Below are positions 1 to 24,004 of a stretch of DNA of 64,000 bases, in pieces (position 1 is the stretch's first letter; each line of letters opens with the position of its first letter). Source of the DNA: a virus (lineage: Duplodnaviria > Heunggongvirae > Uroviricota > Caudoviricetes); IMG/VR virus record IMGVR_UViG_2795385758_000004, positions 22,292 through 86,291 of that record. One strand, written 5' to 3'. The position numbers were made by a program, and so were the translations under genes. The notes below the pieces were generated by a model that had not been told where the DNA came from, did no database searches, and saw nothing but the letters and a program-made list of their open reading frames with translations.

Positions 1-1
1 G

Positions 2-397: not shown

Positions 398-497
398 TCG
401 AAAAGCACTCGCCCCGGACGCGAACCGACTCCCGCGCCCGGGGCGGGGCACCACCTCAGCGAGTCGGCCCCTTTCCCCTGTAGCCAAGGAGTCGAAC

Positions 498-1225: not shown

Positions 1226-1250
1226 AACCTGTTGTGGAGGTGATACATAC

Positions 1251-5167: not shown

Positions 5168-5333
5168 GGGTCAACGCGGTCGCCTTGCACCTTGTGCCCG
5201 GCACACCCGAAACGGGACTGTGGTGCGAAATCTGCCTGCTGCCAAGCCGGTACGAGGTGGCGATATACGCGCTGGTCAGTGACAGCGCGCCGATCCACGT
5301 CGGCACCTTCAACGGCTGCGACGGGCACCAAGC

Positions 5334-7100: not shown

Positions 7101-7513
7101 CAGAGGGTATCTCGCCCGAAGAGGCAAAAGCGCTGGCCGACAAGGTTGTCGAGTCCGAGTTCATCCCGAAGAAGATCCCGGCCGCCGACGACATCGACGC
7201 GCAGACCAAGGCTGTTGGTGGCGCGCTGGCCTCGGCATTGCTGACCGCGACGGAAATGCCGCTGCATGTGTTGCAACCGTGGGTCGCTGACTTGTCGGCC
7301 CAGCTGGTAGCACTCGGAATCCGCCAGACCGAGCATGTCGACCCCACCGCGGTGCACGCGCCGGCCTGGATCACCGATGGGGTACGCCAGGAATCGATCA
7401 AGCTGCCCGAGCAACCCCAGCACACCGAAGCCGATCCGCATGTGGAGATGACCGCCACCGCGCCCAAGTGCCCCAAGCGCATACCCAAGGCAGCCCGGGC
7501 GGTACGGCGGTGA
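7094..7513 (+). CDS. hypothetical tail-associated protein
   Basis: GTG start overlaps the upstream stop (GTGA). 139 aa within the tail operon. Confidence 0.4.
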   Translation: MVTEGISPEEAKALADKVVESEFIPKKIPAADDIDAQTKAVGGALASALLTATEMPLHVLQPWVADLSAQLVALGIRQTEHVDPTAVHAPAWITDGVRQESIKLPEQPQHTEADPHVEMTATAPKCPKRIPKAARAVRR

Positions 7514-10194: not shown

Positions 10195-10216
10195 CACACC
10201 ACAGGAGAACTCACCC

Positions 10217-10522
10217 ATGACCACGCCCGAAGCACCAGCCACCGTCGATGACAACGAGGATCTGACAGACCCCCCGGCCCCCTCGCCCACCCCGGATCCA
10301 CCCGCGCCAGAACTGCCGCAAGAACCGCCCACGCCACCCCAGGCGGCGCAGATCCCCGAGCCGAGCACCACGTTCACCATGCCCGAGCTGCCCGGAATCA
10401 CCTTCGCTGTCGTGCGTGGCGGCTTGGACATCGACGGCAAGCTCAACCCGTCTTGGATTCAGATCACCGGCACTGACAGCGAGGGTGCGATAGTGTCCCG
10501 CATAGGATTCGCCGGGCCCTAA
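10217..10522 (+). CDS. Pro-rich hypothetical protein
   Basis: ATG with AGGAGA ribosome binding site at 10217. PAPSPTPDPPAPELPQEPPTPP tract. No counterpart in prophage B. Confidence 0.4.
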   Translation: MTTPEAPATVDDNEDLTDPPAPSPTPDPPAPELPQEPPTPPQAAQIPEPSTTFTMPELPGITFAVVRGGLDIDGKLNPSWIQITGTDSEGAIVSRIGFAGP

Positions 10523-10523
10523 C

Positions 10524-11678
10524 GTGCCCTGGTCCACCAGCCCGACCGTTGCCGCCACGCGGTCGGGCGGTAAGTGGTCGGTCAATCCGGCCGTGCCAGC
10601 TCCCGCACCAAACGGCCGGTGGCACGCCATCATCGGGATCGATGCCGCACTGGCAGTGATGTGTGTCGGCGAGGTTGAGCTGACCGCCATGCAGGCCATG
10701 GGCGTGGTCTTGTCGGTACACCTTGACCGCGAGCTGGCGTTGGCCGCGGTGTACCAGCTGGCCGCGCAACGCTCGATCCTGATCACTCGCAACCTTGCGC
10801 TACAGGCCACATTCCAACAAGACCTCGCGCTGGCCGTCACCATGGAACGGGCGCTGTTCCTGGCCAAGGTGATCGGCATCGACCTAGCCAACGCGCTGGA
10901 GATGACCGGCACCATCGGCCTGCAACGCGTGGCCGCAATCGATCTGACGTGCAACCTGACGGCGCCGCGCTCGATCGGTTTCGACAAGCTGCTGCCCGTC
11001 GACCTGACACGCACCGTCTCGATGTCCTCGGCGCTGGTGATCGAGCGCGTCGCCAAGATCGACGCCGCACTGACGGTCACCACGGCCCGCGCCTGCACCC
11101 TCGGCTATCCGCCGGGCGGTTTGCCTGTCCTGGCCAGCTACACCACCGCCGGTGCGTTCACTCACAACATCGTGCGCAACTGCGACTTCATGGACTGCGT
11201 TGGGTGCGGTGCCGGAGGCGGCGGGGGTGGCGGTGACGGCGGCCTGGGCAGCACCGGACAGGGCGGCCGTAAAGGCGCATGGAACGCGCGCACCGTCGCC
11301 CGCAACAGCGAGATCCCCGGCTCCGCATTGACCCTGACCGGCATGGTGGGCGCGCCCGGAGCCGCGGGAGCCAAGGAGAAAGGCGGCGGCGCCGGCGGTG
11401 ACACCACATTCCTGATCAACGGAATCACCACCACGTGTGCCGGTGGCGCCGGCGGTAAAGGCGCCTACGCCGGCAACGGACTCAACCAGCCCGGCGAGGC
11501 TGCGGGCAACACCACCCTCAACGGCCAGACCTACACCGGCGGCGCACAAGCGGGCACCAACACCAACGGCAACTCACCCGGCGGCGGCGGCGGGGCCGGC
11601 TCGGGCGGCGCGTTCGGCTTCGCCAATCCCGGACGCCTCGGCGGAACGGGCATAGCACATATCCGGTCCTACCAATAG
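10524..11678 (+). CDS. glycine-rich minor tail protein
   Basis: The C-terminal GGGGGGGDGG...GAGGKGAY...GGGGGAGSGG tract is typical of mycobacteriophage minor tail proteins. Homolog of 27258..28313; both begin MPWST. Confidence 0.7.
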   Translation: MPWSTSPTVAATRSGGKWSVNPAVPAPAPNGRWHAIIGIDAALAVMCVGEVELTAMQAMGVVLSVHLDRELALAAVYQLAAQRSILITRNLALQATFQQDLALAVTMERALFLAKVIGIDLANALEMTGTIGLQRVAAIDLTCNLTAPRSIGFDKLLPVDLTRTVSMSSALVIERVAKIDAALTVTTARACTLGYPPGGLPVLASYTTAGAFTHNIVRNCDFMDCVGCGAGGGGGGGDGGLGSTGQGGRKGAWNARTVARNSEIPGSALTLTGMVGAPGAAGAKEKGGGAGGDTTFLINGITTTCAGGAGGKGAYAGNGLNQPGEAAGNTTLNGQTYTGGAQAGTNTNGNSPGGGGGAGSGGAFGFANPGRLGGTGIAHIRSYQ

Positions 11679-11692
11679 AAGGGAAAACCATT

Positions 11693-12076
11693 ATGGCATG
11701 GGGCATTTCGGCCTACCTGGCGAACAAGATTCTCGATCACATCTGCCGCAACGTGGCCTACACACCACCGGCAACCGTGTACGCCAAGATGCACACCGGC
11801 GATCCCGGCGCGAACGGAACGGCTAACGCATCCTCGGTGGCCACCCGCTACGCCTGCGCGTTCAACGCGGCGGCAGCCGGGTCGATCAGCCAATCCAACA
11901 CCCCCGAGCACACTCTCGGCGCCATGGAAAACATTGCCGGGGTGTCATTCTGGGATCACCCAACGGCCGGGAACTTCTTGTGGTCATCGCAGGCCGCCGC
12001 CTCCAAGTCCGGTGCCAGCGGCGACATCATCCGCATCAACACCGACACCCTCGCACTCGGCCCGCTGGCGGCATGA
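11693..12076 (+). CDS. hypothetical protein (tail/lysis boundary)
   Basis: 127 aa ORF with a ribosome binding site. Position-equivalent to 26398..26760 in prophage B. Confidence 0.45.
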   Translation: MAWGISAYLANKILDHICRNVAYTPPATVYAKMHTGDPGANGTANASSVATRYACAFNAAAAGSISQSNTPEHTLGAMENIAGVSFWDHPTAGNFLWSSQAAASKSGASGDIIRINTDTLALGPLAA

Positions 12077-12219
12077 TGCGCCGCCAGCTGCTCATCTATC
12101 CGGCCCTCTACCTCGCCGTGTTCGCCGTCGCGTTCCGCCTCGGCTGGTGGGCATCGGACCAGCTTTCGTCCTACGCCCAAGAAATCGACCCACGTATCGA
12201 AAAGGAGTACACCCGATGA
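12073..12219 (+). CDS. small single-TM membrane protein preceding lysin A
   Basis: ATGATG start overlaps the upstream TGA, and its stop overlaps the lysA ATG (ATGA). 48 aa with hydrophobic core LLIYPALYLAVFAVAF. 47-aa homolog at 26252..26395. Confidence 0.4.
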   Translation: MMRRQLLIYPALYLAVFAVAFRLGWWASDQLSSYAQEIDPRIEKEYTR

Positions 12220-12872
12220 GCTTTCGCACTGTTAACGGCAACACCCATACCGAGGACGGCTGGCGGTGCTGCAATCGGGATGAATGCGACATCGTGCGCA
12301 TACCCGAGCTGTACCTCGTCGATACCGCACCGCTGCGCAAGGGCGCTCCGCTGACCATCCTCGGCGCCTGGCTGTACTGGTATGACCGCAACGTCGAAGA
12401 GATCACCTCCCCGGTCTGGGGGTGGTCTGCCACTAACGATGTCCTCGGCACTCCGGGTCGTAACGACGGCTCTAATCACTTGTCGGGTACCGCTGTTGAC
12501 GTGATGGCACCCAAGTACCCATGGCAGCAGTACACGATGAACGCCGCCACACAGGCCAAGGTCCGCAAGGGCCTGGCGCTGTTCGAGGGCTCGGTGTTTT
12601 GGGGACGTGACTGGTCGCGCCCCGACGAGATGCACTACCAGATGGCCTGGCCCGAGGGCGACAAACGCAATGACGCGTTCGCCGACAAGCTGCGCGCCGG
12701 ATACCTCGGCATCTACGCCCCCGCACAGCCTCCAGCGCCCGTGCAGAAACGTTTCCCGCAAGACCTTTCCGACCGCGAGCTGCTGGAGTACATCGCCGAA
12801 CAACTCGGACCAGGACACCCTGACTGGGCATCCAAGGGCATGACGCTGCGCGACAAGGTGTGGTCCAAGTGA
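12216..12872 (+). CDS. lysA: lysin A, single-domain peptidase M15-like endolysin
   Basis: ATG at 12216 with AAGGAG ribosome binding site. The longer upstream extension in the track overlaps the preceding gene in another frame and was not used. SNHLSGTAVD ... DEMHY matches the SxHxxGxAxD / DxxH LAS-peptidase signature. Sits immediately upstream of lysB. Confidence 0.7.
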   Translation: MSFRTVNGNTHTEDGWRCCNRDECDIVRIPELYLVDTAPLRKGAPLTILGAWLYWYDRNVEEITSPVWGWSATNDVLGTPGRNDGSNHLSGTAVDVMAPKYPWQQYTMNAATQAKVRKGLALFEGSVFWGRDWSRPDEMHYQMAWPEGDKRNDAFADKLRAGYLGIYAPAQPPAPVQKRFPQDLSDRELLEYIAEQLGPGHPDWASKGMTLRDKVWSK

Positions 12873-14044
12873 TCCGCATCGGCGACCGCAACCAAGCCGT
12901 CCGGCAGTGGCGCGCCGTGATGAACGACCGATACGGGCCGCTCTACACCCGGCTACTGGGACCGCTGCCCCGCGACACCGACGAATTCGGTCCCCGCGCC
13001 GCGTCCTGGGCAGCCGAGTACCAGCGCCGCACCGGCCAGATCCCCACCGGGCAGGTGTCCGATAACGACCTGCGCGCACTGGGCATCACGCCCCCGGCCC
13101 CGCCCGCCAACCGGCACCTCGGGCTGATGTTCCGGGGCACCGGAGGCATCATCGGCCAGGACTACGTATCTCGCGTCATGCAGGCCGTGGCCAACCTCGT
13201 TGAAGAGGTACACCCCGAATTCGCCGCAACCATGGGCGGGCTGCCGGTCGGCGCCGCGGGCGGCCCGGGCGACATATCGATGGCCAAGGCCGTCGACATC
13301 GCCGAGGCCGACGCACAACGCATCTTCACCGAGCGCTACCGCGCCAACCCCAACATCAAGGTCGTCATCGGCGGATACTCGGCCGGCGCGGTCGCGGGCG
13401 CCCGGTTCCGCGCGTGGCTGCTGGAGCACTACCCGAACAACTACCTGTGCTCATTCAGCATCGGCGATCCCACCCGCCCGTACGGTGGCAGCTACTACGG
13501 CGGTCCCGTCCTTGCTGGACAGGGCATTTCGTCGTGGCGGTTCGGCGATGTCAAGGACTACCGGCACTGCTGGCTCACCGACCCCGGCGACATGTACGGC
13601 AACATCCCCCTCGGTGTCGTCGGGGACATCATGGACGACTGTTTCGACATGGTGACCGCGTTTCAGCTCTCGGATCCGCTCGGGGCCGCTGGCGCCATCC
13701 TGCCGAAAATCCCCGAGATCGCCACCAAGGCCTTGGGTATCGAGCTGCCCGCCATATTCGGCGCCCTCTCTGGCGGCCCGGCCGGCATCGGAGCCATCGG
13801 CCTACCCATGGTGCTCGGCGGTCTACAGGGACTACTCGGCTGGGGCGATATCAACAAGCTCACCGGGCCCGCGGCCGCGGCGCAGGCCGCCTTGATCGCG
13901 CTGCGTTTCGTCACCACCAGCCCACCGACCGCCGCGCATATTCAATACGAATACCGCGAGGTCTGGCCCGGCCAAACCTATCTCGGCCTCGCCATCCAGC
14001 ACGTGCGCGACTGGGCCAGCCGCACCCCCGCCATAGCCGCGTAG
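12860..14044 (+). CDS. lysB: lysin B (mycolylarabinogalactan esterase) with N-terminal peptidoglycan-binding-like domain
   Basis: GGYSAGA matches the GxSxG serine esterase motif in a cutinase-like fold. GTG start at 12860, or alternatively GTG at 12869 overlapping the lysA TGA (GTGA). About 95% identical to 24436..25620. Confidence 0.85.
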   Translation: MVQVIRIGDRNQAVRQWRAVMNDRYGPLYTRLLGPLPRDTDEFGPRAASWAAEYQRRTGQIPTGQVSDNDLRALGITPPAPPANRHLGLMFRGTGGIIGQDYVSRVMQAVANLVEEVHPEFAATMGGLPVGAAGGPGDISMAKAVDIAEADAQRIFTERYRANPNIKVVIGGYSAGAVAGARFRAWLLEHYPNNYLCSFSIGDPTRPYGGSYYGGPVLAGQGISSWRFGDVKDYRHCWLTDPGDMYGNIPLGVVGDIMDDCFDMVTAFQLSDPLGAAGAILPKIPEIATKALGIELPAIFGALSGGPAGIGAIGLPMVLGGLQGLLGWGDINKLTGPAAAAQAALIALRFVTTSPPTAAHIQYEYREVWPGQTYLGLAIQHVRDWASRTPAIAA

Positions 14045-14177
14045 ATCAGTCCGCCCCCGCGCGAGGAGAGCGCGCTGGGACTCCCCACACCGTAGCGCTC
14101 CCTATCCATGGCGCCATCGAAAAAACTCCCCCTGAACTGCCCAAACCCTGTTATCCACAACCCCGAGAGGACCCGTC

Positions 14178-14405
14178 ATGCCCAACCCCATACCCCAAAA
14201 CGACACCACCCGCCTCATCGTCTACGCGGTCATGTTCATCGTCGTGTTCGCCGGAACCGTGGCCATGATCATCTCAGGGAAAATGGACGCCGCCAGCGGA
14301 CTGCAATGGGTGATTTCCATTGCCGGTCTCATCGGTACCGGCCTGCCGGGCCTCAAACTCGCCCAAGATATCCGCGGGAGCGGGCCGGACGGGTCGGCCG
14401 AGTGA
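14178..14405 (+). CDS. holin-like protein, two predicted TM helices
   Basis: 75 aa with GAGAGGA ribosome binding site. Two hydrophobic segments (LIVYAVMFIVVFAGTVAMII and WVISIAGLIGTGLPGL). Directly downstream of lysB. Confidence 0.55.
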   Translation: MPNPIPQNDTTRLIVYAVMFIVVFAGTVAMIISGKMDAASGLQWVISIAGLIGTGLPGLKLAQDIRGSGPDGSAE

Positions 14406-14653
14406 CCCCCGAGATAATCCAGGCGCTCGGCGTGGCCATCGCTGCGATTCTGACCGCGTGGCAAGCAATGACATCGCGGAAGGTTCGCGAACTCGAGGCC
14501 CGGATCAAGGCGGTCGAGAAGGAACGCGACCAGTTCCGCGACAAGCTCAGGGCCGCGGTGCGACACATCCGCGACTGGATGGGATGGGCCATGCACCACG
14601 CGCCCGGACAGGCCCCACCGCCGCTGCCGACAGAACTCGTCGACGAGGTGTAG
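14402..14653 (+). CDS. second lysis-cassette membrane protein (1 TM + coiled coil)
   Basis: GTG overlaps the upstream TGA (GTGA). One TM segment (ALGVAIAAILTAW) then a charged coiled-coil region. Homolog at 23753..24004. Confidence 0.5.
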   Translation: MTPEIIQALGVAIAAILTAWQAMTSRKVRELEARIKAVEKERDQFRDKLRAAVRHIRDWMGWAMHHAPGQAPPPLPTELVDEV

Positions 14654-14680
14654 CCCCCCGACTCGGAGTTAGACAGCTTG

Positions 14681-14727
14681 CCCAAAGGTGCCCCCGCTCA
14701 AACACACTGAGCGGGGGCACCTTTGGG
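14681..14727. terminator. bidirectional stem-loop terminator between convergent operons
   Basis: Perfect 20-bp inverted repeat cccaaaggtgcccccgctca / tgagcgggggcacctttggg around a 7-nt loop. Lies between the end of the + strand lysis genes and the end of the - strand toxin/immunity operon. Confidence 0.6.
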
Positions 14728-14733
14728 CGTTCG

Positions 14734-15006
14734 CTACTGCGAGTATCCGGGGCCGTAGGTGGTCGTCCCGGGTGGCACTATAGACTGCCCGATAGCCAGT
14801 ACTAGAATGAAGACCACAGATCCCGCCGCGGCGGCCAGCATCCCGATCGAGAAGGGGCGGGACTTCGGCGGTATGTAAGTTCCTATGCCGACTAGCACGA
14901 GAAGTACCGGCGTGAACATGTAGAGGTAGACCGCCAGGGAGAAAGCGGCAGACCCGGCCAGCAGACCGGCAATAGTCAGGTATCGGTTCATGTGATCGCC
15001 ACCCAA
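14734..15006 (-). CDS. small membrane protein (second immunity candidate)
   Basis: 90 aa with 2-3 hydrophobic helices. Lower GC than the surroundings. Last gene of the - strand toxin operon. Confidence 0.4.
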   Translation of the reverse strand: MGGDHMNRYLTIAGLLAGSAAFSLAVYLYMFTPVLLVLVGIGTYIPPKSRPFSIGMLAAAAGSVVFILVLAIGQSIVPPGTTTYGPGYSQ

Positions 15007-15269
15007 AATATGCCCAACAGGTACGTGATGGCACCCGGAAGCGGGGACAGCATTATCCCGCGTGCGTAGTCGCCCAATTGAGGGGACAGCGATTTCATCG
15101 CGAACCCGACAATCGGAAGAACGATGAACAGGCCGAGGATCGTCAAATAGATTGTGGTGCTTTCCAACCCGCCATGGGCCACGAAGAATGACGCGAGCGC
15201 GCCGTAGGCGACAGCAGACGCTATTGCTGCCGTGAAGACGACCCGCTTGTCACTACTGGTGTCATTCAT
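14988..15269 (-). CDS. membrane protein, candidate immunity protein for the adjacent toxin
   Basis: ATG lies 4 nt after the toxin stop. 93 aa with three hydrophobic segments. Lower GC than the surroundings. Confidence 0.45.
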   Translation of the reverse strand: MNDTSSDKRVVFTAAIASAVAYGALASFFVAHGGLESTTIYLTILGLFIVLPIVGFAMKSLSPQLGDYARGIMLSPLPGAITYLLGIFWVAIT

Positions 15270-15273
15270 CGAA

Positions 15274-16596
15274 TCACCCTACTGGGACTGTGGGAATGCG
15301 GTCAGTGGGTCCGAGCTGCGTTCCGGGGGTTGCGATCGGTATATCCCCTCGCGCGGCCGCAGTCGGTACGTGGAATTGGTTGACCAGTGACGCGTCGCCT
15401 TCCGAGTGCGACATGGGCAGTTGAAACAGCGGCCCGAATTCGTTGTGTCCCAGGCTTGGCATGTACTGAACCGCAGCCTGGTCGCCGTGGTAGATCTCCA
15501 GCGCAGGAAAGCTGGTGACCGTTCCGCCGACCTGAATGCCCGAATCGGTTGGCACTAGAGCTATATCGCCTTTCACGGTGTGAAATGACCCCTGGCCTGA
15601 TATCAGGCCGCCCGGTAGGAATCCATCCGCGGACTCGTATTGGATGTTGAGGGCATTACCCTTTTGCTTCACCGAGACATCAGGGTTGGTGCCTACTGCC
15701 ACTGCGCCAGTATCAGCATTGACCGACGGATTCTGGCGGTGGATCACCGCGCCGTTGTCGAAGTCTACGAGCATGCTCACGCGAGAGTGCTCGGGTGACG
15801 CATTCCGGTCGAAACCACGGTTATCGCCCCGGTCCTTGCCGAAGTTCCAGACCTTCTCACCGGGAATGAACGCGTTGATCTGCACCTGCCCTTTGCCCGG
15901 TTGCGGCTCAATCTTGGCAACCTTGATGTCGGACTCGACCCCCTTGTACTTAGGGTCATAGTTGTGCGCGTCCAGCATCGCCGCTGTGTGCCAGTCGGCG
16001 GGAGTTGTTGGCGCTCTTTTGAATACCTCTCGGAATGCAAACTCCTGGTTTTCGCGGGGCGACTTAATGCGGTCCAGCTCGCCGAGTATCCCGGTCATCG
16101 ACACCGGGAGTGACGATGGTTTCTCGTCACCGTCTGCGAGATTGACGGCGTGCGTCAGGGTGGCATCGGCGGCGTCACCGTCGGCCACGGCTCGCTTGAT
16201 CGCGTCGGTCAGCTCTGCCGCCTGCTGAGCCGCTTCCGGCTTGTCCGACAGCGGTTTTACCGCTCCGGTGGCGTAGTCGATCGAGAACTTGCCCCGTGCC
16301 TCGTTCTCGATCTTGCTCAGCTTGGCTTTGGCTGCCTCGAACTCGTCGGCCGCCTCGCGCATCTTGGCGGCCGCGGCCTGGCGCCCTTCGGAGTGGGTGC
16401 CGATGAGCTTGCCGAAGACTCCGAGCTCGGTGTCGGCGGTGGTGGCAGCGACCCCGGTCCAGTTGCCGACATGGGGCAGGTTGGGGAACGAGTTCTTGAT
16501 ATCGCTGAGCGAGGTCGCTTGCTTCTCCAGCGCCGCGGCGACATCGCGGATCATCTGGACGTCGACCTTCTTGAGATCCGCGGGGGTGAGTGACAT
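15274..16596 (-). CDS. polymorphic toxin with N-terminal WXG100-like (type VII secretion substrate) domain and an uncharacterised C-terminal domain
   Basis: 440 aa. N-terminal helical domain has NWTGVAAT, a W-x-G motif. Its start abuts the stop of the upstream WXG100 gene. The C-terminal roughly 250 aa matches nothing I recognise. Confidence 0.6.
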   Translation of the reverse strand: MSLTPADLKKVDVQMIRDVAAALEKQATSLSDIKNSFPNLPHVGNWTGVAATTADTELGVFGKLIGTHSEGRQAAAAKMREAADEFEAAKAKLSKIENEARGKFSIDYATGAVKPLSDKPEAAQQAAELTDAIKRAVADGDAADATLTHAVNLADGDEKPSSLPVSMTGILGELDRIKSPRENQEFAFREVFKRAPTTPADWHTAAMLDAHNYDPKYKGVESDIKVAKIEPQPGKGQVQINAFIPGEKVWNFGKDRGDNRGFDRNASPEHSRVSMLVDFDNGAVIHRQNPSVNADTGAVAVGTNPDVSVKQKGNALNIQYESADGFLPGGLISGQGSFHTVKGDIALVPTDSGIQVGGTVTSFPALEIYHGDQAAVQYMPSLGHNEFGPLFQLPMSHSEGDASLVNQFHVPTAAARGDIPIATPGTQLGPTDRIPTVPVG

Positions 16597-16917
16597 CTAC
16601 ATCACCGATGCGTCGGGATAGAGGCGAGTCTGAAAGATGTTGATCTTCGATTGCTCGTCGGTGGTCGTGAATGCATGCCCACAGGTGTCGAACGCGTCTC
16701 GATAGTGGGTCAGCTCGTTCTCGATATGCCGGGATTGCGCCGCCCAATCGGTCATCTTTGCCCGCAGCGCCGCAGCCGACGAGCCAACCCACCCGGTAGA
16801 CGCAGCCTCGATCGCTGCGTTGGTAGCCGCGTGGGTCTCGATGTGCTCAGCGCGGTGCATGTCCATGCGATCGGCTGACATCCGTAGACGCTCGGGCTCG
16901 ACGCTCATTGCGTCCAT
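16597..16917 (-). CDS. WXG100 (ESAT-6/CFP-10-like) family protein
   Basis: 106 aa helical protein carrying TGWVGSSAAAL, a W-x-G motif, at the expected position. Confidence 0.7.
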   Translation of the reverse strand: MDAMSVEPERLRMSADRMDMHRAEHIETHAATNAAIEAASTGWVGSSAAALRAKMTDWAAQSRHIENELTHYRDAFDTCGHAFTTTDEQSKINIFQTRLYPDASVM

Positions 16918-16965
16918 GTCGTACCCCCTCGGTGGTAGCTGAGTGGACTATACGATAGGCCGGTT

Positions 16966-17208
16966 CTAGCGGCCACGGGTTGCCAGCTCGGGGCATTCAG
17001 ACATGACTTCCCGATCGACGGCAGCTTTCGCGGCGGTGTAGTTGGGATAGATCGGCTGATCCTCTGAGAACGTCAGGGCTACGTCGACGGGCCCCATGCC
17101 AGGGTATTTGCGCAGCATGTCGCACACAATTCCAGTTGGCCGAGGGCTGGCGTGCGCAATTAGTGCGCACCCGAGGGTGATCATCACGGCCAGCATGAGC
17201 GCCCTCAT
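16966..17208 (-). CDS. small secreted protein (signal peptide)
   Basis: N-terminus MRALMLAVMITLGCALIAHA is signal-peptide like. 80 aa. Confidence 0.45.
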   Translation of the reverse strand: MRALMLAVMITLGCALIAHASPRPTGIVCDMLRKYPGMGPVDVALTFSEDQPIYPNYTAAKAAVDREVMSECPELATRGR

Positions 17209-17618
17209 TCGATGTGCCCCGGCTCGCCGTCAGGGATGGCGTCGGCCCAGACGATGTAGCGTTCCCGCTGGGTAACCGTGGTCGGGTCAGAGTAAGACGT
17301 GGATAGCTCGCAGCCATCGGCGTGGTAGCGGCCGTAGTCGTCGATCCGCCCCTGGCACTTAGTCCTATTGCCACCGATATGGGTGAAAGTGCGGTATCTC
17401 ACCCAAGCAATGTTGCCGCTGCCACTTACTTCCACCGGGCTGTCACATAGCTGACGGATGCTGGGATTCAGCCCGAGAATAGCGTCGCGCTGGCAGTGGA
17501 AGATCTCCGGTAGTCCCATATCGGAAGGGTCGCCGGGCGCCGCATTGGCGGGCGTGGCGAGCGCGATAGCAGCCAATGGAACCATGAGCGGCAATGCCCA
17601 CTTTCCGATTCGCATCAT
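17205..17618 (-). CDS. secreted Cys-containing protein
   Basis: Signal peptide MMRIGKWALPLMVPLAAIALATPANA. 137 aa with 4 Cys. ATGA overlap with the downstream gene. Confidence 0.45.
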   Translation of the reverse strand: MMRIGKWALPLMVPLAAIALATPANAAPGDPSDMGLPEIFHCQRDAILGLNPSIRQLCDSPVEVSGSGNIAWVRYRTFTHIGGNRTKCQGRIDDYGRYHADGCELSTSYSDPTTVTQRERYIVWADAIPDGEPGHIE

Positions 17619-17787
17619 GCGCGGATCGTACTTCGATCGGCTAGTTTCCGGCCAGGAATGCCACCAGCCGATCTACCTTGCCGATTCCGTCGAAATGACG
17701 CGGCGCGCGTGAAGTGTCCCGGCCGCCAGCCCACAGCACTACGCCCGTCTGGCTGTAGGCGACGCTGGCATAGGCGGGAGTGCCGGG

Positions 17788-17822
17788 CAGTCGATACACA
17801 CACTCACGGTGTGTATCGACTG
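17788..17822. repeat. perfect 14-bp inverted repeat hairpin 3' of integrase A
   Basis: cagtcgatacacac actcacg gtgtgtatcgactg. Located 87 bp beyond the integrase A stop. Possible terminator or protein-binding site. Confidence 0.5.
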
Positions 17823-17908
17823 CCCTGTCACCGTCATTGGAAATCCAGCCGTGCTGACGTGCAGCGGCGTCGACCTCGCGCTGGCCGGTCATCGCGCGAA
17901 CGGTTCGA

Positions 17909-18808
17909 TCATGTTGATTGCCTCTCGATTGCGCTGGCTGAACGCCGGCGGGTCGCTGCCTTCTTGGTTCGAGGTGAAGCGCACAGCCGTGACGCCAGTG
18001 CGTCAACGCCAACCGCACCGCGCCGCGTGTTGTAGCCGAGGTAAACCATTGTGGTAGCAAGGCTTTGGTGCCCAAGGGCTTCTTGGATATACCGGATATC
18101 GACGCCAAGCTCGTTGAGCGCGGTTGCGAAGCGGTGCCGCAACGTGTGCAGCGTGTACGGCAGCTTGAGGCCCGCCAAGAAGTCCGAAGACACCACCGAC
18201 ACGTAGTTCGGAGTCACCTGCCCTCCAAGCGGACGGCGGAACATCGGTCCAGCCTGGCTGAGCTGAATGGCCAGCCGTGCCTGTACCTCCGGCGGGACAC
18301 GAACGATGCGTTGCTTTCCACCCTTGCCATGCACGGTCAGGAACGCGCCGCCATTCTCATCGGGGCGAAAGTCGGTGCGAGACATCTGCGCGATCTCCCC
18401 AGCGCGCAGACCGCAGTATCCGGCCAGTAGTAGCCACGCGTGCATGTCTGAGCCGGCGGGGGCGGCCAGCAATGCCAGGCGTAGGTGATCCTCGGGAATG
18501 GGACGCGGCATCCGGCGTTTGAGCTTGGGCTGTACGAGGCTGGCGGTTGGGTCCTCGTCGATGAGCCTGCCGCGGTGAGCCCATCTGTAGAACGCGCAGA
18601 CGTGCGAGGTGTAGGTCTGAATACTAGAAGGGCACACTCGAAGCGACCGTTGCCATGCTTCGAGCTGCGCGGGGGTTGCATCTAGGAGGGGGGTATCACC
18701 GAGCCAGCGCGCGAGCCGGTCTATCTGGCCGAGCCTGTGCTCGATCGTCTTCGGGGTCATGTTGCGCAGACGCAGGTGTGCTGTGAACTCGCTGAGGGTG
18801 TTTTCCAT
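17909..18808 (-). CDS. int: tyrosine recombinase / phage integrase (Xer-like, 299 aa)
   Basis: N-terminal SAM-like core-binding domain. C-terminal catalytic motifs HTLRHRFAT and ALGHQSLATTMVYL carry the R..H..R..Y signature. About 75-80% identical to integrase B. Confidence 0.85.
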   Translation of the reverse strand: MENTLSEFTAHLRLRNMTPKTIEHRLGQIDRLARWLGDTPLLDATPAQLEAWQRSLRVCPSSIQTYTSHVCAFYRWAHRGRLIDEDPTASLVQPKLKRRMPRPIPEDHLRLALLAAPAGSDMHAWLLLAGYCGLRAGEIAQMSRTDFRPDENGGAFLTVHGKGGKQRIVRVPPEVQARLAIQLSQAGPMFRRPLGGQVTPNYVSVVSSDFLAGLKLPYTLHTLRHRFATALNELGVDIRYIQEALGHQSLATTMVYLGYNTRRGAVGVDALASRLCASPRTKKAATRRRSASAIERQST

Positions 18809-18846
18809 GGCAAATGAATAACGGCTACTTACTCGCGACCGCGGGG

Positions 18847-19012
18847 TTGTTGCAGGTCAGATGCTTTCCTGAGCGGAAAACGTGACCCGAACTCGCGCGA
18901 CGCCCGATGCGCTTATACGGTTCATACTCACGAGTATGAACCGTATAAGTCCGCGTTCCGGCGCGCCAGCTCAGGTCACGGTTTCCGCTCGGGGAAGCAA
19001 CTGACCTGCAAC
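18847..19012. repeat. large imperfect palindrome between divergent integrase genes with perfect 18-bp core inverted repeat (candidate shared att core / recombinase site)
   Basis: Outer arms ctgacctgcaacaa are identical on both sides. Inner arms are about 85% identical. The core cttatacggttcatactc ac gagtatgaaccgtataag (18912..18949) is a perfect inverted repeat. Confidence 0.55.
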
Positions 19013-19056: not shown

Positions 19057-19947
19057 ATGTCACCTGTGAATAATGACACTGTCGTCTCAGAGTTTGCTCG
19101 TTATCTGAAGCTGAAGAACTTCACAGCTAAAACGATCGAGCACCGCTTGGGGCAGATTGCTAGATTAGCTAGATGGCTTGGGGAAACATCTTTGCTGGAG
19201 GCCACCCCGGAGCAGCTTGAGGCCTGGCAGGGTTCGTTGCGGGTGTGCCCGTCTAGCATCCAGACCTACACGTCGCATGTTTGCACCTTCTATCAGTGGG
19301 CCTACCGATGTGGGCGCACGAGCGAATACGTCGCAAAAGACTTGGTGCAACCGAAGATTCAGCGCCGTATGGCCCGGCCCATCCCCGAGGACCACTTGCG
19401 GATCGCGCTGACCGGCGCGCCTGTCGGGACTGACATCCATGCATGGCTGCTATTGGCCGGATACTGCGGTCTGCGCGCTGGGGAGATCGCGCAGATGTCA
19501 CGCAACGACTTTCGCCCCGATGAAGGCGGCGGCGCCTTCCTGACCGTGCACGGTAAGGGAGGGAAGCAACGCATCGTCCGAGTTGCCCCCGAGGTCATGC
19601 AACGTCTGGCAATTCAGCTGAGCCGACCCGGCACCATGTTCTGCCGTCCCCGCGGCGGGCCAGTCACACCCAACTACGTCTCGGTCGTGGGTGCGGAATT
19701 CCTAACCAATCTCGGGCTCCCGTACACGCTGCACACCCTGCGACACAGGTTCGCGACCGTGCTCGCCGACGAAGGCGCGGACCTCCGCGATATCCAGGAA
19801 TTGATGGGGCACGAGAGCCTGGCGACCACCATGCGGTACCTCGCTTACTCGACCCGACGTGGAGCGGCGTCCGTCGACTCGCTCGCGTCGCACTTGTGCC
19901 CCTCGCGGTCGTCGGCATCGAGAATGGAACAGCGCAGTCACAAGTAG
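19057..19947 (+). CDS. int: tyrosine recombinase / phage integrase (Xer-like, 296 aa)
   Basis: Homolog of integrase A with the same catalytic motifs (HTLRHRFAT, LMGHESLATTMRYL). Transcribed divergently from integrase A. Confidence 0.85.
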   Translation: MSPVNNDTVVSEFARYLKLKNFTAKTIEHRLGQIARLARWLGETSLLEATPEQLEAWQGSLRVCPSSIQTYTSHVCTFYQWAYRCGRTSEYVAKDLVQPKIQRRMARPIPEDHLRIALTGAPVGTDIHAWLLLAGYCGLRAGEIAQMSRNDFRPDEGGGAFLTVHGKGGKQRIVRVAPEVMQRLAIQLSRPGTMFCRPRGGPVTPNYVSVVGAEFLTNLGLPYTLHTLRHRFATVLADEGADLRDIQELMGHESLATTMRYLAYSTRRGAASVDSLASHLCPSRSSASRMEQRSHK

Positions 19948-20028
19948 GTGTCACATCTAGGAGGTCGGCCAGCGGGCACGAGGGGATGCCCATATGGTCT
20001 CCGAATGCCCGCTCGCCGGTCCCCCTGG

Positions 20029-20304
20029 ATGAATGAACGCGCCCAGTTGCTCGTGCGCTATCTCGCTGAGCAGCACGCCCTGAACATGACCGAGGCCATG
20101 GCGCGAGAGCGTATTTCGGCGAAAGTCGACCTGACCGCCGAGCTGATGGGCATCAGCCGGCAGTCGGCCAAGGCCTACGTCGATGAGGACTACGTGCGCC
20201 GGATGGCCGATAGCTTCGCGGCAGCGGTCCGAGACTTACAAGCTCGGTCACCGCGCCGTGGACTGAGAGCGGTGCCCGACCAGTCTGGAATCGCGACGGA
20301 ATAG
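20029..20304 (+). CDS. small hypothetical protein (possible regulator)
   Basis: ATG at 20029 follows the integrase. 91 aa, helical. No recognisable motif. Confidence 0.35.
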   Translation: MNERAQLLVRYLAEQHALNMTEAMARERISAKVDLTAELMGISRQSAKAYVDEDYVRRMADSFAAAVRDLQARSPRRGLRAVPDQSGIATE

Positions 20305-20401
20305 CAATAACCCTGCGCATGCCGCCGAAACGTGCAGGTCGGATGGGTATCGCTTCGCACTCCTATTGCGGTGGCAAACTCGGCGGCGATACCATCCGGC
20401 A

Positions 20402-20713
20402 ATGAGTGGAGGGGTCCTCGGGGTTTCGCCAGAAGAGTTGCAGCGGGTTTCGCGATTGGTCACCGCGACCGCAGGCGGTTTGGCGACGGAGCTGGATGCC
20501 CTCGACGCCGAGGTGTCGCGGTTTGTCGGCTCCGGTTGGTCTGGTGGGTCGGCGAGCGCGTTCACCACGCGGTGGTTCCAGTGGTACGAGGGCGCCAAGC
20601 TGGTACACCAGGGCCTTGCGCAGATGGGCAGCTTGTTGGCGAGCACCGGGGATGCGTTCGTGGGCCAGGATGCGGCCACCGCCGCCAACGTCAACGCCGC
20701 TGACGGAATGTAG
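20402..20713 (+). CDS. WXG100 family protein (EsxB/CFP-10-like)
   Basis: 103 aa carrying SGWSGGSASAF, a W-x-G motif. First gene of an Esx-like pair. Confidence 0.65.
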   Translation: MSGGVLGVSPEELQRVSRLVTATAGGLATELDALDAEVSRFVGSGWSGGSASAFTTRWFQWYEGAKLVHQGLAQMGSLLASTGDAFVGQDAATAANVNAADGM

Positions 20714-20722
20714 GGGGAGAAG

Positions 20723-21013
20723 ATGTCAGGTGAATTCGGCGTTGTGCCCGACGAGCTCATGCGGATCATCGAACGCATGGCAGAGGTTGAGCAGCGAGCC
20801 GAGGCGTCGATAGCGGCCATGGACACCGAGGTTCACAACCTGCACGCCACCTTCACAGGTGAAGCTGCCACGGCCCACACGCAGGCGCACGAGAAGTGGG
20901 CCAAGGGCGCCGAGCAGATGCGCGAAGCGCTCAAGGGCCTACGTAGCGCGAGCCACGCCGCGCACGGCAATTACACAGGCGCCGCTGCCAAGAACATGCA
21001 GAACTGGGCATAG
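20723..21013 (+). CDS. WXG100 family protein (EsxA/ESAT-6-like partner)
   Basis: 96 aa helical hairpin protein. Strong ribosome binding site GGGGGAGAAG. Carries KWAKG. Immediately downstream of the EsxB-like gene. Confidence 0.6.
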   Translation: MSGEFGVVPDELMRIIERMAEVEQRAEASIAAMDTEVHNLHATFTGEAATAHTQAHEKWAKGAEQMREALKGLRSASHAAHGNYTGAAAKNMQNWA

Positions 21014-21017
21014 CGCG

Positions 21018-22670
21018 ATGGCACCCCCGATTCATGTCGACCCGGTTGCCCTCGATGGCGCCGGTAGAACGGTCTCCAGCTCGGTGGGCGGGTGGGGCTC
21101 TGCGCTGTCGGCATTGCAGTCGGCGCTGTCGAGTTCGGCCGGTATGGGTGGGGATGACCCCGCCGGGATCGTGTTCGCGCGATCGTATGACTCGTCAGCC
21201 AAGGAACTCCTTGAGGCGATGGTGGACGTGTCCAACGGTGCCGGGCGGGCCGCTGACGGCATCCGGGCCTCGGCGACCAACTATTCGCGTGCCGAGGTGG
21301 CATCCAACATCGACGGCAAGGGCGGCGACCCACTGCCCGCCGCCTCACCCACTCCCGCGGTGAAGGCCGGGACCCCACCGTCTGCGGTGGGTAGCGATGT
21401 TGGCGACCCACCCGGTTGGTTCCTGGTGGAGCCGTTCATCGGAATGATTTGGCCCAATGGTGATTCGGCGAAGCTGCGCGCCGCTGGCGCCGCGTGGACG
21501 GCTGCCGGTGCGGCATTCACCGCTCAGCAGGCCGGACTAGCGGGGGCGCAGGCAACCGCGCAGGCCCAGCAGATCCCCGAAGGTCCCAAGATCGATAGCG
21601 CGTTCAAGACGATTGACGGTGCTGTCGGCGAGGTCGGCGGCATGTGCAGCACCATGGGCACCAAGCTCAACGACTACGCGGCCAAGATCGATACGGCGCA
21701 CGCATCGATACTGGACCTGTTGGCCCGCTTGGTAAATCCGCTGACCGGTGCCAAACAGGTCGTGGACTGGATTACCGGCGAAGACGACGACGAAATAAAG
21801 AAAATCGCCGCCGACATCCGCAACATCGTCAACCAGTTCAAGTCGGAAGTGCAGTCGCTCGCGCTGCTGCTGGCGCCGATCATCCAGGGCGCATCGATGG
21901 TCATCGACACCCTAAAGTCGTTGGTACAGATGCAGGTTGAGCTTTTCGGAAACGAGATATACAACACCGTGGCCCCGGTAGTGAACGCCACTGCATCCTT
22001 GGGGCAGGCCATGATCGACAACCCCGGCCAGACAATCCAGATGGCAGCTGGAGTCGGCATGATGGCGGTCGGCTACGACATGATGGCTGCGGCGGGCGTC
22101 GGTGAGGTCTTCACCGGTGGGGCCGCGACACCGGTCGCGGCGCCTGTCGCTGTTGCCGGGGCGGGCTTACTCGCTGGTGGCGCGGTCGTCGCCATACCGC
22201 CAGCCCTCGACCTCTCGAAAGAGGCTGCGGTCAACGGCGTGACGGTGATGGAGGCCCGGACTGGACGACCCGGCGAGGGCATCAACCGTGGCGACGACCG
22301 CGATTCCATCGGCACATTCACAGGCCGAGGCGGCACAGCCCGAGGATACGGTCGCCAACCAGAGGCAGAGGGTATCGATCGTTATCGGCGCGCTAACCCG
22401 GACGAATGGGTGAGCACTGAGCGTCGTAAGGCCAAGGTCGATGGGGTCGAGAATGGCCGCTACTACGATGGTTTGGCGCAGAAGTCAGACGGCACTTACA
22501 AAGGTATTGAGGTCAAATCCGGTGATGCCACACGCAATGCAGAGCAGCGAGCGTTCGACTCGGCCGTAACTCCAGAGAATCCGGCCTACGTTACGATCAC
22601 AAACAGGAGCGGGGAAGTCGAGACGGTGAAAGTCACTGAGGTAGAGGTAATTAAGGTGGCGGGCGAATGA
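21018..22670 (+). CDS. polymorphic toxin: N-terminal Esx/WXG-like secretion domain, Ala/Gly-rich linker, C-terminal putative PD-(D/E)xK-like nuclease domain
   Basis: ATG at 21018 lies 4 nt after the Esx gene stop. The track's upstream extension overlaps the Esx gene and was not used. The last roughly 120 aa are AT-richer and include SDGTYKGIEVKSGD, a D...ExK-like motif. The stop overlaps the start of the next gene. Confidence 0.6.
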   Translation: MAPPIHVDPVALDGAGRTVSSSVGGWGSALSALQSALSSSAGMGGDDPAGIVFARSYDSSAKELLEAMVDVSNGAGRAADGIRASATNYSRAEVASNIDGKGGDPLPAASPTPAVKAGTPPSAVGSDVGDPPGWFLVEPFIGMIWPNGDSAKLRAAGAAWTAAGAAFTAQQAGLAGAQATAQAQQIPEGPKIDSAFKTIDGAVGEVGGMCSTMGTKLNDYAAKIDTAHASILDLLARLVNPLTGAKQVVDWITGEDDDEIKKIAADIRNIVNQFKSEVQSLALLLAPIIQGASMVIDTLKSLVQMQVELFGNEIYNTVAPVVNATASLGQAMIDNPGQTIQMAAGVGMMAVGYDMMAAAGVGEVFTGGAATPVAAPVAVAGAGLLAGGAVVAIPPALDLSKEAAVNGVTVMEARTGRPGEGINRGDDRDSIGTFTGRGGTARGYGRQPEAEGIDRYRRANPDEWVSTERRKAKVDGVENGRYYDGLAQKSDGTYKGIEVKSGDATRNAEQRAFDSAVTPENPAYVTITNRSGEVETVKVTEVEVIKVAGE

Positions 22671-23167
22671 GTCTTGAGCGCAATGGTTTTCAGATGCATA
22701 CATACACTACCGACAAAGATTTCATTATGTGGATGGGCGCTGAGCCAGGGAAGGCGCACCGGCAGATCGAAATAAATATCAACTCGATCGGCGAAGATCG
22801 GGATGGTGTCGCAGACGTGGCGTTCTCGATCTATAAGGTCCCCGATGGCACTGAGTACGACGAGTTCCCATACCCTCATGAGTGGATTCAGACTTGCGGG
22901 GCCACCGCCGAGCGCCTGACCGTCGAAATCCGCCGGAAAGAGTCCGATGGCGTTCGGCGTATGTACACCATCGGACGGCCTTCTGCGGCAAATGAATCCG
23001 AGCAGTCAGAGACGGTCTACAACGGCGACAGTGAGTACCTGGTACGACCGTCAGAGGTCCTATCCGCCGCTGAAGCTATCGAGCTGTTCCAGCACTACTA
23101 CAACCACCTGGACGTTGCGCCGGGCTGGCACTTGCGCGAGCAACCCGAATTCGCCGACGCCGGGTAG
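22667..23167 (+). CDS. candidate immunity protein for the upstream toxin
   Basis: ATGA start/stop overlap with the toxin. 166 aa, acidic. Noticeably lower GC than the surroundings. Confidence 0.5.
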   Translation: MSLERNGFQMHTYTTDKDFIMWMGAEPGKAHRQIEININSIGEDRDGVADVAFSIYKVPDGTEYDEFPYPHEWIQTCGATAERLTVEIRRKESDGVRRMYTIGRPSAANESEQSETVYNGDSEYLVRPSEVLSAAEAIELFQHYYNHLDVAPGWHLREQPEFADAG

Positions 23168-23241
23168 GGGGCATGCCCGCCGCGATGTGAGCACTCCTGT
23201 AACCACTTCTGACCTGGGCGTGATCTTGTAATCTGCCGTCC

Positions 23242-23670
23242 ATGGCGAGAGAGATGGGCACCCCGGCGAAAGCGTTGTGGGTGTGTCTGGGGGTATTTGT
23301 CGGGCTGCTGGCGTTCATGGCGGCGTGCGCAATAGGGCTGTCGGGCCAATCCGGAAACGTTGGTGTGAGCGTTGAAGTGAGGCAAAAGTACGCGATCGAG
23401 ACATGCCAGTCCGCTCTCATGAAGCGCATGCGTGACCCTGAGAGTGCGAAGTTCGCCGATGAGGTGGCCCGTGAAGGCGTGGCGCATGGAGGTGGTCGCG
23501 ATCCCGAGTTGGACTACTCGCCCGACCGCGGTGATATTTACTTTACGGTGACGGGCAATGTCAACGCCAAGAACGCGTTTGGTGGTTACACGGGGATGCG
23601 TCCCTACACCTGCGATGCGGTGGTGGACAGAAACGGCACAACGCAAAGCCGGGCCCGCGTGCTGGATTAG
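23242..23670 (+). CDS. membrane-anchored / lipoprotein-like secreted protein
   Basis: N-terminal hydrophobic segment ending FMAAC looks like a lipobox. 142 aa. Last + strand gene before the convergent terminator. Confidence 0.4.
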   Translation: MAREMGTPAKALWVCLGVFVGLLAFMAACAIGLSGQSGNVGVSVEVRQKYAIETCQSALMKRMRDPESAKFADEVAREGVAHGGGRDPELDYSPDRGDIYFTVTGNVNAKNAFGGYTGMRPYTCDAVVDRNGTTQSRARVLD

Positions 23671-23690
23671 TGCACTAGAAACACGAATAG

Positions 23691-23730
23691 CGCCCCTCAC
23701 CGGGTCGGGGTGAGGGGCGTTATTTCGTTG
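23691..23730. terminator. stem-loop terminator (bidirectional) between convergent operons
   Basis: cgcccctcacc gggtcgg ggtgaggggcg followed by a T-rich tract. Confidence 0.55.
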
Positions 23731-23752
23731 GCCTGCAATCAGTGTGGGCTCT

Positions 23753-24004
23753 CTACACCTCGTCGACCAGCTCTGCTGGTAGTTCGGGTGTGGGCGTTTC
23801 GGGTCTGTGTTGTCGCGCCCAGCCCATCCATTCGCGGATGTGTCGGACGGCTGCGCGGAGTTTGTCACGATATTGGTCGCGCTGGCCTACGACGATGGCT
23901 AGTTGAGCTTCCAGGTCGCGGACTTTGCGCGAGGTGCGGGCTTGCCAGGCGCCCAGGATGGCGACGATGGCGCCGCCGACGGCTTGGATCTGGTCGGGGC
24001 TCAC
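23753..24004 (-). CDS. lysis-cassette membrane protein (1 TM + coiled coil), homolog of 14402..14653
   Basis: GTG overlaps the upstream TGA (GTGA). Contains AVGGAIVAILGAWQARTSRKVRDLEAQ. About 75% identical to the prophage A protein. Confidence 0.5.
   Translation of the reverse strand: MSPDQIQAVGGAIVAILGAWQARTSRKVRDLEAQLAIVVGQRDQYRDKLRAAVRHIREWMGWARQHRPETPTPELPAELVDEV

Follow-up and report, generated by a model that had tools for sequence, protein, structure and literature searches.

A prophage-borne WXG100 polymorphic toxin-immunity cassette of Mycobacterium abscessus with a predicted PD-(D/E)xK nuclease domain and a DddI-like immunity protein

The window analysed here is a 64,000-nucleotide (nt) stretch of viral DNA, positions 22,292 to 86,291 of IMG/VR record IMGVR_UViG_2795385758_000004. 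Its segment 20402-23167 holds four co-directional, tightly packed genes in the open reading frame (ORF) list, encoding proteins of 103, 96, 550 and 166 amino acids (aa) (Table 1). Genes 70-67 of Mycobacterium phage prophiCCUG48898T-1 (GenBank OQ417974), a Cluster MabC prophage whose host is M. abscessus subsp. massiliense CCUG 48898T, match this cassette at 100% identity. The GenBank record labels genes 70 and 69 "WXG100 protein", gene 68 "polymorphic toxin protein with WXG100 motif" and gene 67 "polymorphic toxin immunity protein", and shows the four genes bordered by a tyrosine integrase and a helix-turn-helix (HTH) gene at one end and by holin, lysin B and lysin A at the other. When positions 19900-23700 were compared with GenBank phage records by megablast, OQ417974 matched over the full length at 100%, followed by prophiGD51-1 (99.9%) and prophi104-2 (96.3%); the exact 550-aa toxin is indexed in 358 blocks of public assemblies. 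The four genes likely constitute a prophage-borne polymorphic toxin-immunity module that is exported by an ESX (type VII) secretion system.

As an object the cassette is ordinary: it is known, already deposited, annotated and published. Figure 6 of Amarh et al. 2023 (PMC9934374) is devoted to exactly genes 70-67, and that paper reports a recent exchange of the cassette between MabC and MabD prophages. According to Dedrick et al. 2021 (PMC8092301), such cassettes form a class with 19-21 configurations adjoining attachment (att) junctions, show lysogenic expression and are predicted to be exported via ESX-3 or ESX-4; Table S3 of that paper lists this cassette type as configurations t and u and gives no domain name. 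The published cassettes are the same object, with no locus-level difference: the gene order is shared, and so is the location, flanked by the lysis cassette on one side and the integrase/att end on the other. A preliminary description of the window, made from its letters and ORFs alone, had proposed a polymorphic toxin-immunity cassette of the T7SS (type VII secretion system)/WXG100 type in a mycobacterial prophage, with the lysis genes on one side of it and the att site on the other; the identical sequence as annotated in GenBank and both papers agree with it on identity and on place. The available text of the two papers gives no fold for the C-terminal domain of the toxin or for the immunity protein, which their figures may hold.

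The C-terminal ~105 aa of the toxin are predicted to adopt a PD-(D/E)xK (restriction-endonuclease-fold) nuclease fold with a conserved candidate active site, as supported by family-wide conservation and by modelling. The guanine-plus-cytosine (GC) content drops from 0.652 over aa 1-452 to 0.556 over aa 453-550 and is 0.569 in the next gene, in keeping with the AT-richer C terminus of the preliminary description. The last 140 aa of the toxin have no match in Pfam (E up to 10), NCBIfam or PHROGs, phmmer and hmmsearch comparisons of the C terminus with PDB sequences found nothing, and Foldseek returned no significant match in the PDB. A word-indexed search retrieved 11 relatives of the C terminus, in whose alignment a D, an E-x-K, a Q and an F-D are invariant, and a profile search of 1.84 billion representatives yielded 360 proteins (cluster representatives) at E <=1e-3. 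Of the best 150 of these 360 matches, nearly all have the domain at the C terminus, with protein lengths of up to 2158 aa. Conservation was assessed in 77 diverse long members of the family: D484, E498 and Q510 are the same in every one of them, and E449, R481, K500 and D514 reach a conservation of at least 90%.

In an AlphaFold model based on the family alignment, the predicted local distance difference test (pLDDT) score exceeds 90 at residues 35-139 of the 139 submitted. The order of the model's elements, α(35-48), β, β(60-63), β(74-77), β(83-90), α(97-105), β(112-117) and β(123-136), contains the core α-β-β-β-α-β fold of the PD-(D/E)xK superfamily. E449 maps to helix 35-48, D484 to a position just before strand 74-77, E498-x-K500 to strand 83-90 and Q510 to helix 97-105, which is the canonical PD-(D/E)xK arrangement. 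By itself, a short D...ExK motif occurs at chance level; here it rises above chance because it is invariant throughout the family and coincides with the matching fold. The preliminary description had inferred a restriction-endonuclease fold from a D...E-V-K motif in the string SDGTYKGIEVKSGD. This string is present in the toxin C terminus and its ExK is conserved, but the aspartate chosen there lies 7 residues too far downstream: judged by alignment and model, the catalytic aspartate would be D484 (in RYYDG), not the aspartate of the SDGT(Y) hairpin turn. The fold assignment itself gains support from the confident model and from the E...D...ExK...Q pattern found family-wide. An RNase, such as a tRNase, in place of a DNase within the same cassette and fold appears unlikely to us. 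The E...D...ExK...Q pattern is the signature of DNA-cleaving members and of the predicted DNase Tox-REase families (PMC3482391), and the fold of the immunity protein matches DddI, which neutralizes a DNA-acting toxin, although neither point is decisive.

The Tox-REase families (Zhang et al. 2012, PMC3482391) share with the predicted nuclease the restriction-endonuclease fold, the C-terminal placement and delivery by T7SS (WXG), Rhs or HINT modules. The signature that PMC3482391 lists for Tox-REase-1 comprises E, D, ExK and Q, and that for Tox-REase-6 the same residues with an extra Y; likened by these listed signatures, the domain resembles Tox-REase-1 and, apart from the extra Y, Tox-REase-6. 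The immunity proteins listed for the two families (Imm-PA2201 and Imm49; PMC3482391) differ from the one encoded here. The Pfam models of Tox-REase-2, -3, -5, -7 and -9 did not match the 140-aa C terminus (E up to 10), and no Pfam toxin model, Tox-REase included, matched any of the 77 members (E up to 0.01). The Tox-REase-5 toxins of sister MabC prophages carry a different domain.

The immunity gene begins inside the toxin gene, its ATG lying within the toxin stop codon (ATGA) to give a 4-nt overlap (...GAATGAGT...). The product has an isoelectric point (pI) of 4.67, with 30 D+E versus 15 K+R, and a hydropathy scan detected no hydrophobic segment in it, so that it reads as a presumably cytoplasmic protein, translationally coupled to the toxin. 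These properties agree with the small acidic protein earlier described as starting at an ATG at 22667, inside the toxin stop. Its model (pLDDT 92.9) shares the fold of DddI at a sequence identity of 8%. Structure prediction had been suggested as a check on the C-terminal domain and on the 22667..23167 product, and returned confident models of nuclease-type and DddI-like folds, respectively. The immunity protein has no match in Pfam (E up to 10), NCBIfam or PHROGs, which, together with the negative searches for the toxin C terminus, bears out, for these libraries, the suspicion that domain and partner are unassigned; its profile found nothing meaningful among PDB sequences. A search found 80 homologues, of which the named ones are almost all mycobacterial and none has a Pfam domain. 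The likeness to the DddA-DddI pair of Burkholderia cenocepacia (PDB 6u08) concerns the immunity fold: DddA is a deaminase toxin delivered via the type VI secretion system, whereas the toxin here has a predicted PD-(D/E)xK domain and a T7SS route, and its immunity protein has an N-terminal extension of ~45 residues compared with DddI.

Genomic linkage independently supports the pairing of toxin domain and immunity protein. The same toxin domain stands behind a Hint motif in a Patulibacter genome and ends a 2158-aa Rhs protein on a metagenomic contig; in both cases the next gene, again with a 4-nt overlap, encodes a homologue of the immunity protein (hhalign 98%, E 6e-15 and 5e-14, respectively). 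Immunity homologues also follow the toxin domain in mycobacterial loci. The immunity gene travels with the toxin domain and not with the trafficking domain, as in polymorphic toxin systems (Zhang et al. 2012). One candidate for an orphan immunity gene in M. abscessus (P0019) was discarded, being another prophage allele. The same four-gene cassette also occurs outside any obvious prophage in environmental mycobacteria (L030:3694-7293, on a Mycolicibacterium sp. HS_4_1 chromosome, and L031:295-3894), where the immunity gene is directly followed by another small gene. At L030, the product of this small gene (185 aa) is apparently a second immunity homologue, P0086, judged by its length and by the genome it comes from. 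Such an arrangement follows the pattern of an orphan or poly-immunity array.

Upstream of the predicted nuclease lies a putative ESX export module. The gene 70 product matches Pfam WXG100 (E 4e-16) and NCBIfam TIGR03930 (E 2.2e-12; 47.0 bits, passing the cut-off of 44.85) and contains GSGWSGG, whose WSG at aa 46-48 (W46-S-G48) is the only literal WxG that a motif scan found in the cassette. The gene 69 product matches Pfam WXG100 (E 2.9e-11) and T7SS_ESX_EspC (E 2.9e-5) and scores 42.9 bits against TIGR03930, just under the cut-off; the motif scan found neither a literal WxG nor a YxxxD/E in it. In the toxin itself, aa 142-236 match WXG100_2 (PF25547; E 2.5e-7, 31.2 bits, over the gathering cut-off of 27), within a conserved trafficking region (aa 1-~400) common to toxins with other C-terminal domains. 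For the first 100 residues there is a weak WXG100 match on aa 5-93 of a protein 93% identical to the toxin (P0092), and the scan located a YxxxE export motif at Y89-S-R-A-E93 (nt 21282-21296). At the sequence level, both parts of a putative composite export signal are present, with the WxG on gene 70 and the YxxxE on the toxin. The EsxB-like gene with SGWSGG, the EsxA-like partner and the Esx-like N terminus of the 550-aa protein had all been recognized in the preliminary description and stand.

Between the trafficking region and the nuclease domain lie two further elements. The Gly/Ala-rich segment at aa ~372-397 reaches a Kyte-Doolittle 19-residue mean of up to 2.0, and a similar hydrophobic segment precedes the toxin domain in the relatives P0004 and P0007; it may have a membrane-interacting or translocation role. 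The linker that follows has pLDDT <50 at model residues 1-33 and is predicted to be disordered, and yet R428 and G432 within it are at least 90% conserved in the 77 members. It contains the motif RPGEGI.RGD.RD..G.FTGRGG at aa 417-439 (22266-22334), just upstream of the nuclease domain, a partial form of which recurs in a relative in Hint context (P0010); the motif could be a processing or translocation signal. Speculatively, the hydrophobic segment and the linker motif might be candidates for elements that help the toxin cross the recipient envelope. This architecture also bears on whether the pair could instead be an intracellular addiction or abortive-infection toxin-antitoxin module that is never exported. 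The tight coupling of toxin and antidote, the prophage location and the cytoplasmic immunity protein would suit such a module, but a ~445-aa N-terminal region with an Esx-like trafficking domain, two WXG100 partner genes and a YxxxE motif would be needless inside the cell, and the same toxin domain is fused elsewhere to Rhs and Hint export modules; we therefore consider this alternative very unlikely and favour export.

The toxin is modular at both ends. Homologues of its N-terminal 400 aa carry ADP-ribosyltransferase (ART; PF03496/PF01129), Stv (PF21527), Imm61-like or unrecognized C termini, so that a conserved N terminus is joined to alternative, unrelated C termini, as described for polymorphic toxins (Zhang et al. 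2012). The C-terminal domain, for its part, occurs downstream of T7SS_signal, WXG100_2, PPE, EspA/E, Rhs and Hint modules. Among the 77 members, the N-terminal family is T7SS_signal in 20, WXG100_2 in 11, WXG100 in 6, EspA/EspE in 5, PPE in 3 and RHS repeats in 3. One short relative of the domain follows an intein/Hint C-terminal splicing motif.

Prophage alleles differ mainly in the stretch from the nuclease domain through the immunity gene, and three types can be told apart: that of the window and GD51-1, that of GD13-2 and GD17-1, and that of GD44-1. The toxins of prophiGD13-2, GD17-1 and GD44-1 are ~99% identical to that of the window up to residue 452, while their last 98 residues diverge with the catalytic residues kept; the corresponding immunity proteins are 56-57% identical to that of the window, with the differences mostly in the N-terminal half. 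Nucleotide identity to other MabC/MabD cassettes is mostly 94-100% up to ~22300 (90-92% in a 100-nt window at 22102), falls to 42-80% between ~22370 and 23150, and returns to 95-100% afterwards in GD13-2. Such a pattern is the expected signature of diversifying toxin-immunity specificity. Because sharp differences between the alleles are limited to the nuclease domain and its immunity gene, individual prophages probably represent separate toxin-immunity specificity groups, which would fit antagonism between M. abscessus strains. Gene 66 is 97-99% conserved in MabC prophages with entirely different toxin cassettes; being conserved whatever the cassette, it lies outside the swapped module and marks a fixed right-hand boundary.

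Some observations weigh against the interpretation of the cassette as an ESX-exported nuclease toxin aimed at other bacteria. The motif scan found no literal WxG in the toxin itself; a consensus scan of 19900-23900 found no promoter-like site (terminator-like sites in this interval were no commoner than in shuffled sequences); many nr/UniRef records in the toxin's own 90% cluster and in neighbouring clusters bear the name NAD(+)--arginine ADP-ribosyltransferase; and the phage literature (PMC8092301) proposes a role in virulence and in vivo growth.

The database name implies that the C-terminal domain is a Mav-like NAD(+)--arginine ADP-ribosyltransferase, an identity to which we give almost no weight. 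No ART Pfam model matches the toxin or any of the 77 family members, and the fold search of the domain returned no ART, while true ART carriers with the same N terminus do match PF03496 and PF01129, at aa ~516-669 of their 666-684-aa proteins. ART identity was rejected on this ground: the PF01129/PF03496 domain is absent from the toxin and detectable in its real ART relatives. As ART carriers share only the trafficking region with the toxin, the name "NAD(+)--arginine ADP-ribosyltransferase" was most likely transferred via the N terminus, and for this toxin the sequence comparisons mark it as almost certainly wrong, a propagated mis-annotation. The toxin is also called "Mav domain protein" in nr/UniRef records.

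The virulence proposal leads to a different account, in which the module serves mainly the infection of human or amoebal hosts and acts on eukaryotic cells like TNT of CpnT. Proteins named CpnT are indeed among the N-terminal homologues, and ESX-4 is needed for intracellular growth of M. abscessus (as cited in PMC8092301). However, the pair also occurs in soil Actinobacteria, in Rhs/Hint toxins and on environmental Mycolicibacterium chromosomes with extra immunity paralogues, which is the pattern of an interbacterial weapon; the sharp allelic co-divergence of toxin and immunity protein points to selection by kin discrimination; and inter-mycobacterial killing has been demonstrated for a locus of the same layout (PMC13444075). 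Host infection as the main purpose is accordingly a less probable account, deserving only a minor share of belief, and antagonism between bacteria remains our preferred interpretation.

That locus, the Eat locus of M. abscessus subsp. massiliense GO 06 (TapA1/TapA2/EatA/EatI), provides the closest functional parallel. Experiments reported in PMC13444075 showed that its export depends on ESX-4 and that it kills mycobacteria. Its layout is the same: a pair of small helical partner genes precedes a toxin whose long N terminus is helical, and an immunity gene comes last. The likeness is one of gene layout: the EatA payload described there is a GH183 arabinanase acting in the cell envelope, its inhibitor a secreted lipoprotein, whereas the cassette here encodes a predicted nuclease and a cytoplasmic immunity protein. 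CpnT/TNT of M. tuberculosis and the Mav-type ART toxins have a homologous WXG100_2-containing N terminus and a modular C-terminal toxin; their export is ESX-dependent, while export is predicted here, and their C termini are an NAD+ glycohydrolase (TNT) in CpnT and an ART in the Mav type, in contrast to a nuclease fold.

Taken together with these parallels, a plausible mechanism begins with expression of the cassette from the resident prophage; RNA sequencing evidence of expression (PMC8092301) concerns sister cassettes, not this one. The acidic cytoplasmic immunity protein, coupled to the toxin stop codon, would bind the C-terminal domain and protect the producer, as its DddI-like fold and conserved adjacency suggest. 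The helical N terminus of the toxin (aa 1-~330) may bundle with both WXG100 proteins, one of which supplies the WxG, and the resulting Esx-like helical bundle would present a composite secretion signal to an EccC ATPase. The analogy to EatA and CpnT makes ESX-4 the likeliest export system. After export and entry into a target cell, the ~105-aa PD-(D/E)xK domain is predicted to cleave nucleic acid, with a metal site formed by E449, D484, E498 and K500 and with Q510 on the following helix. With a nuclease payload and a cytoplasmic immunity protein, the toxin must reach the target cytoplasm; the route by which cytoplasm-targeting toxins enter the recipient is named as an open question in PMC13444075. 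Finally, the alleles would define separate immunity groups, in line with antagonism between M. abscessus strains.

The window that surrounds the cassette consists of two prophages in head-to-head arrangement, a MabN prophage to the left and a MabC prophage to the right. Over positions 1-18941, the window matches the right-hand portion of the MabN prophages prophi62-3 and prophi108-1 almost exactly, and from ~18919 on it is the reverse complement of the MabC prophage. Both clusters use attB-13, and in ordinary lysogens each integrase adjoins a host short-chain dehydrogenase gene. Here, a near-perfect palindrome, CTTATACGGTTCATACTC-AC-GAGTATGAACCGTATAAG (18913-18950), joins the two integrase-side arms, and the integrases diverge from it; the junction region spans 18907-18952, with a core at 18920-18943. 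In the normal attR junctions of both phages, the host half-site GAGTTCTTACTC takes that place. An independent 2.46-Mb M. abscessus contig (GCA_900136365.1; L035:2251-2500) with a different left-hand prophage shows this inverted core junction as well; this core was found by protein-based look-up, and the exact palindromic junction was found in none of the GTDB representative genomes or IMG/VR records. The junction could have arisen by integration of a second phage into a resident attR in reverse orientation, or it could be an assembly artefact at the palindrome. On a 1.58-Mb contig (L006:7630-8930; GCA_900131685.1), the MabC integrase is preceded by a 129-aa gene and other phage genes, not by host DNA. 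The 129-aa gene probably encodes the full-length repressor, and the layout amounts to an attP-like junction within a chromosome, which suggests tandem prophage copies.

The small product of gene 71, which flanks the cassette and is annotated as HTH DNA-binding in GenBank, has no Pfam or NCBIfam match. The MabN prophage has a second, unrelated polymorphic toxin cassette on the minus strand (14734-16917). For its 440-aa toxin, no Pfam family is recorded for the equal-length product at the same position in related loci; its two small hydrophobic proteins resemble membrane immunity proteins and thereby point to a target in the envelope or membrane. Beside the MabN integrase, also on the minus strand (17205-17618), lies the gene of a 137-aa protein with an N-terminal signal-like sequence. 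The equal-length product at its position in related loci has Pfam CDGP (PF24238), and the 137-aa protein may be a secreted prophage accessory protein.

Table 1. Features of the toxin-immunity cassette and of its surroundings in the window
Feature	Position	Strand	Basis
WXG100 partner 1 (gene 70, EsxB-like, 103 aa)	20402..20713	+	Pfam WXG100, TIGR03930, GenBank
WXG100 partner 2 (gene 69, EsxA/EspC-like, 96 aa)	20723..21013	+	Pfam, GenBank
Polymorphic toxin (gene 68, 550 aa + stop)	21018..22670	+	ORF, OQ417974 identity
Toxin aa 1-100, putative Esx-like helical hairpin (structure inferred)	21018..21317	+	Motif scan, weak WXG100 match
Toxin aa 142-236, WXG100_2 domain	21441..21725	+	PF25547
Toxin aa ~372-397, hydrophobic Gly/Ala-rich segment AAPVAVAGAGLLAGGAVVAIPPAL	22131..22208	+	Kyte-Doolittle
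Toxin aa 411-445, conserved low-confidence linker	22248..22352	+	Model pLDDT, conservation
Toxin aa 446-550, predicted PD-(D/E)xK (restriction-endonuclease-fold) domain	22353..22667	+	
Candidate catalytic residue E449	22362-22364		
Candidate catalytic residue D484	22467-22469		
Candidate catalytic residue E498	22509-22511		
Candidate catalytic residue K500	22515-22517		
Candidate catalytic residue Q510	22545-22547		
Allelic divergence island (nuclease domain + immunity gene)	22370..23150	+	Sliding identity, protein alignments
Putative cognate immunity protein (gene 67, 166 aa, DddI-like fold)	22667..23167	+	
Tyrosine integrase of the MabC prophage (gene 72; "integrase B" of the preliminary description)	19057..19947	+	Phage_integrase E 2.8e-21, GenBank
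Small protein annotated as HTH DNA-binding (gene 71; alternative GTG start 19948)	20005..20304	+	GenBank
Gene 66 (142 aa, N-terminal hydrophobic segment, phrog_2320)	23242..23670	+	
MabN cassette, WXG100 gene	16597-16917	-	
MabN cassette, 440-aa toxin	15274-16596	-	
MabN cassette, two small hydrophobic proteins	14988-15269 and 14734-15006	-	

The cassette itself brings no novelty: the Hatfull laboratory has catalogued prophage polymorphic toxin loci of this kind, of which it is a textbook case, and the 2026 EatA study (PMC13444075) had established that such M. abscessus loci are used via ESX-4 against other mycobacteria. Our analysis adds a predicted PD-(D/E)xK nuclease-fold domain, absent from the curated libraries, in a very widespread toxin allele, a corrected candidate catalytic residue, the ART mis-annotation and the DddI-like fold of the immunity protein. 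It further adds that the prophage alleles diverge in the nuclease and immunity genes alone, a pattern that predicts distinct immunity groups. E449, D484, E498 and K500 offer concrete residues, and the domain boundaries concrete constructs, for testing cytoplasm-targeting T7SS toxins in mycobacteria. We tentatively propose, at somewhat short of even confidence, that the domain represents a nuclease-toxin family of ~360 representatives with DddI-fold immunity proteins, and that at least three co-diverged toxin-immunity alleles on attB-13 prophages of M. abscessus act as strain-incompatibility groups, delivered via ESX-4 to the cytoplasm of rival mycobacteria. Such a family would be mostly actinobacterial and mostly T7SS-delivered, and would fall outside Pfam, NCBIfam and PHROGs. 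If the proposal is true, a very common cassette would drive competition among clinical M. abscessus lineages, and it would provide a handle on how a T7SS toxin crosses the mycobacterial envelope of rivals.

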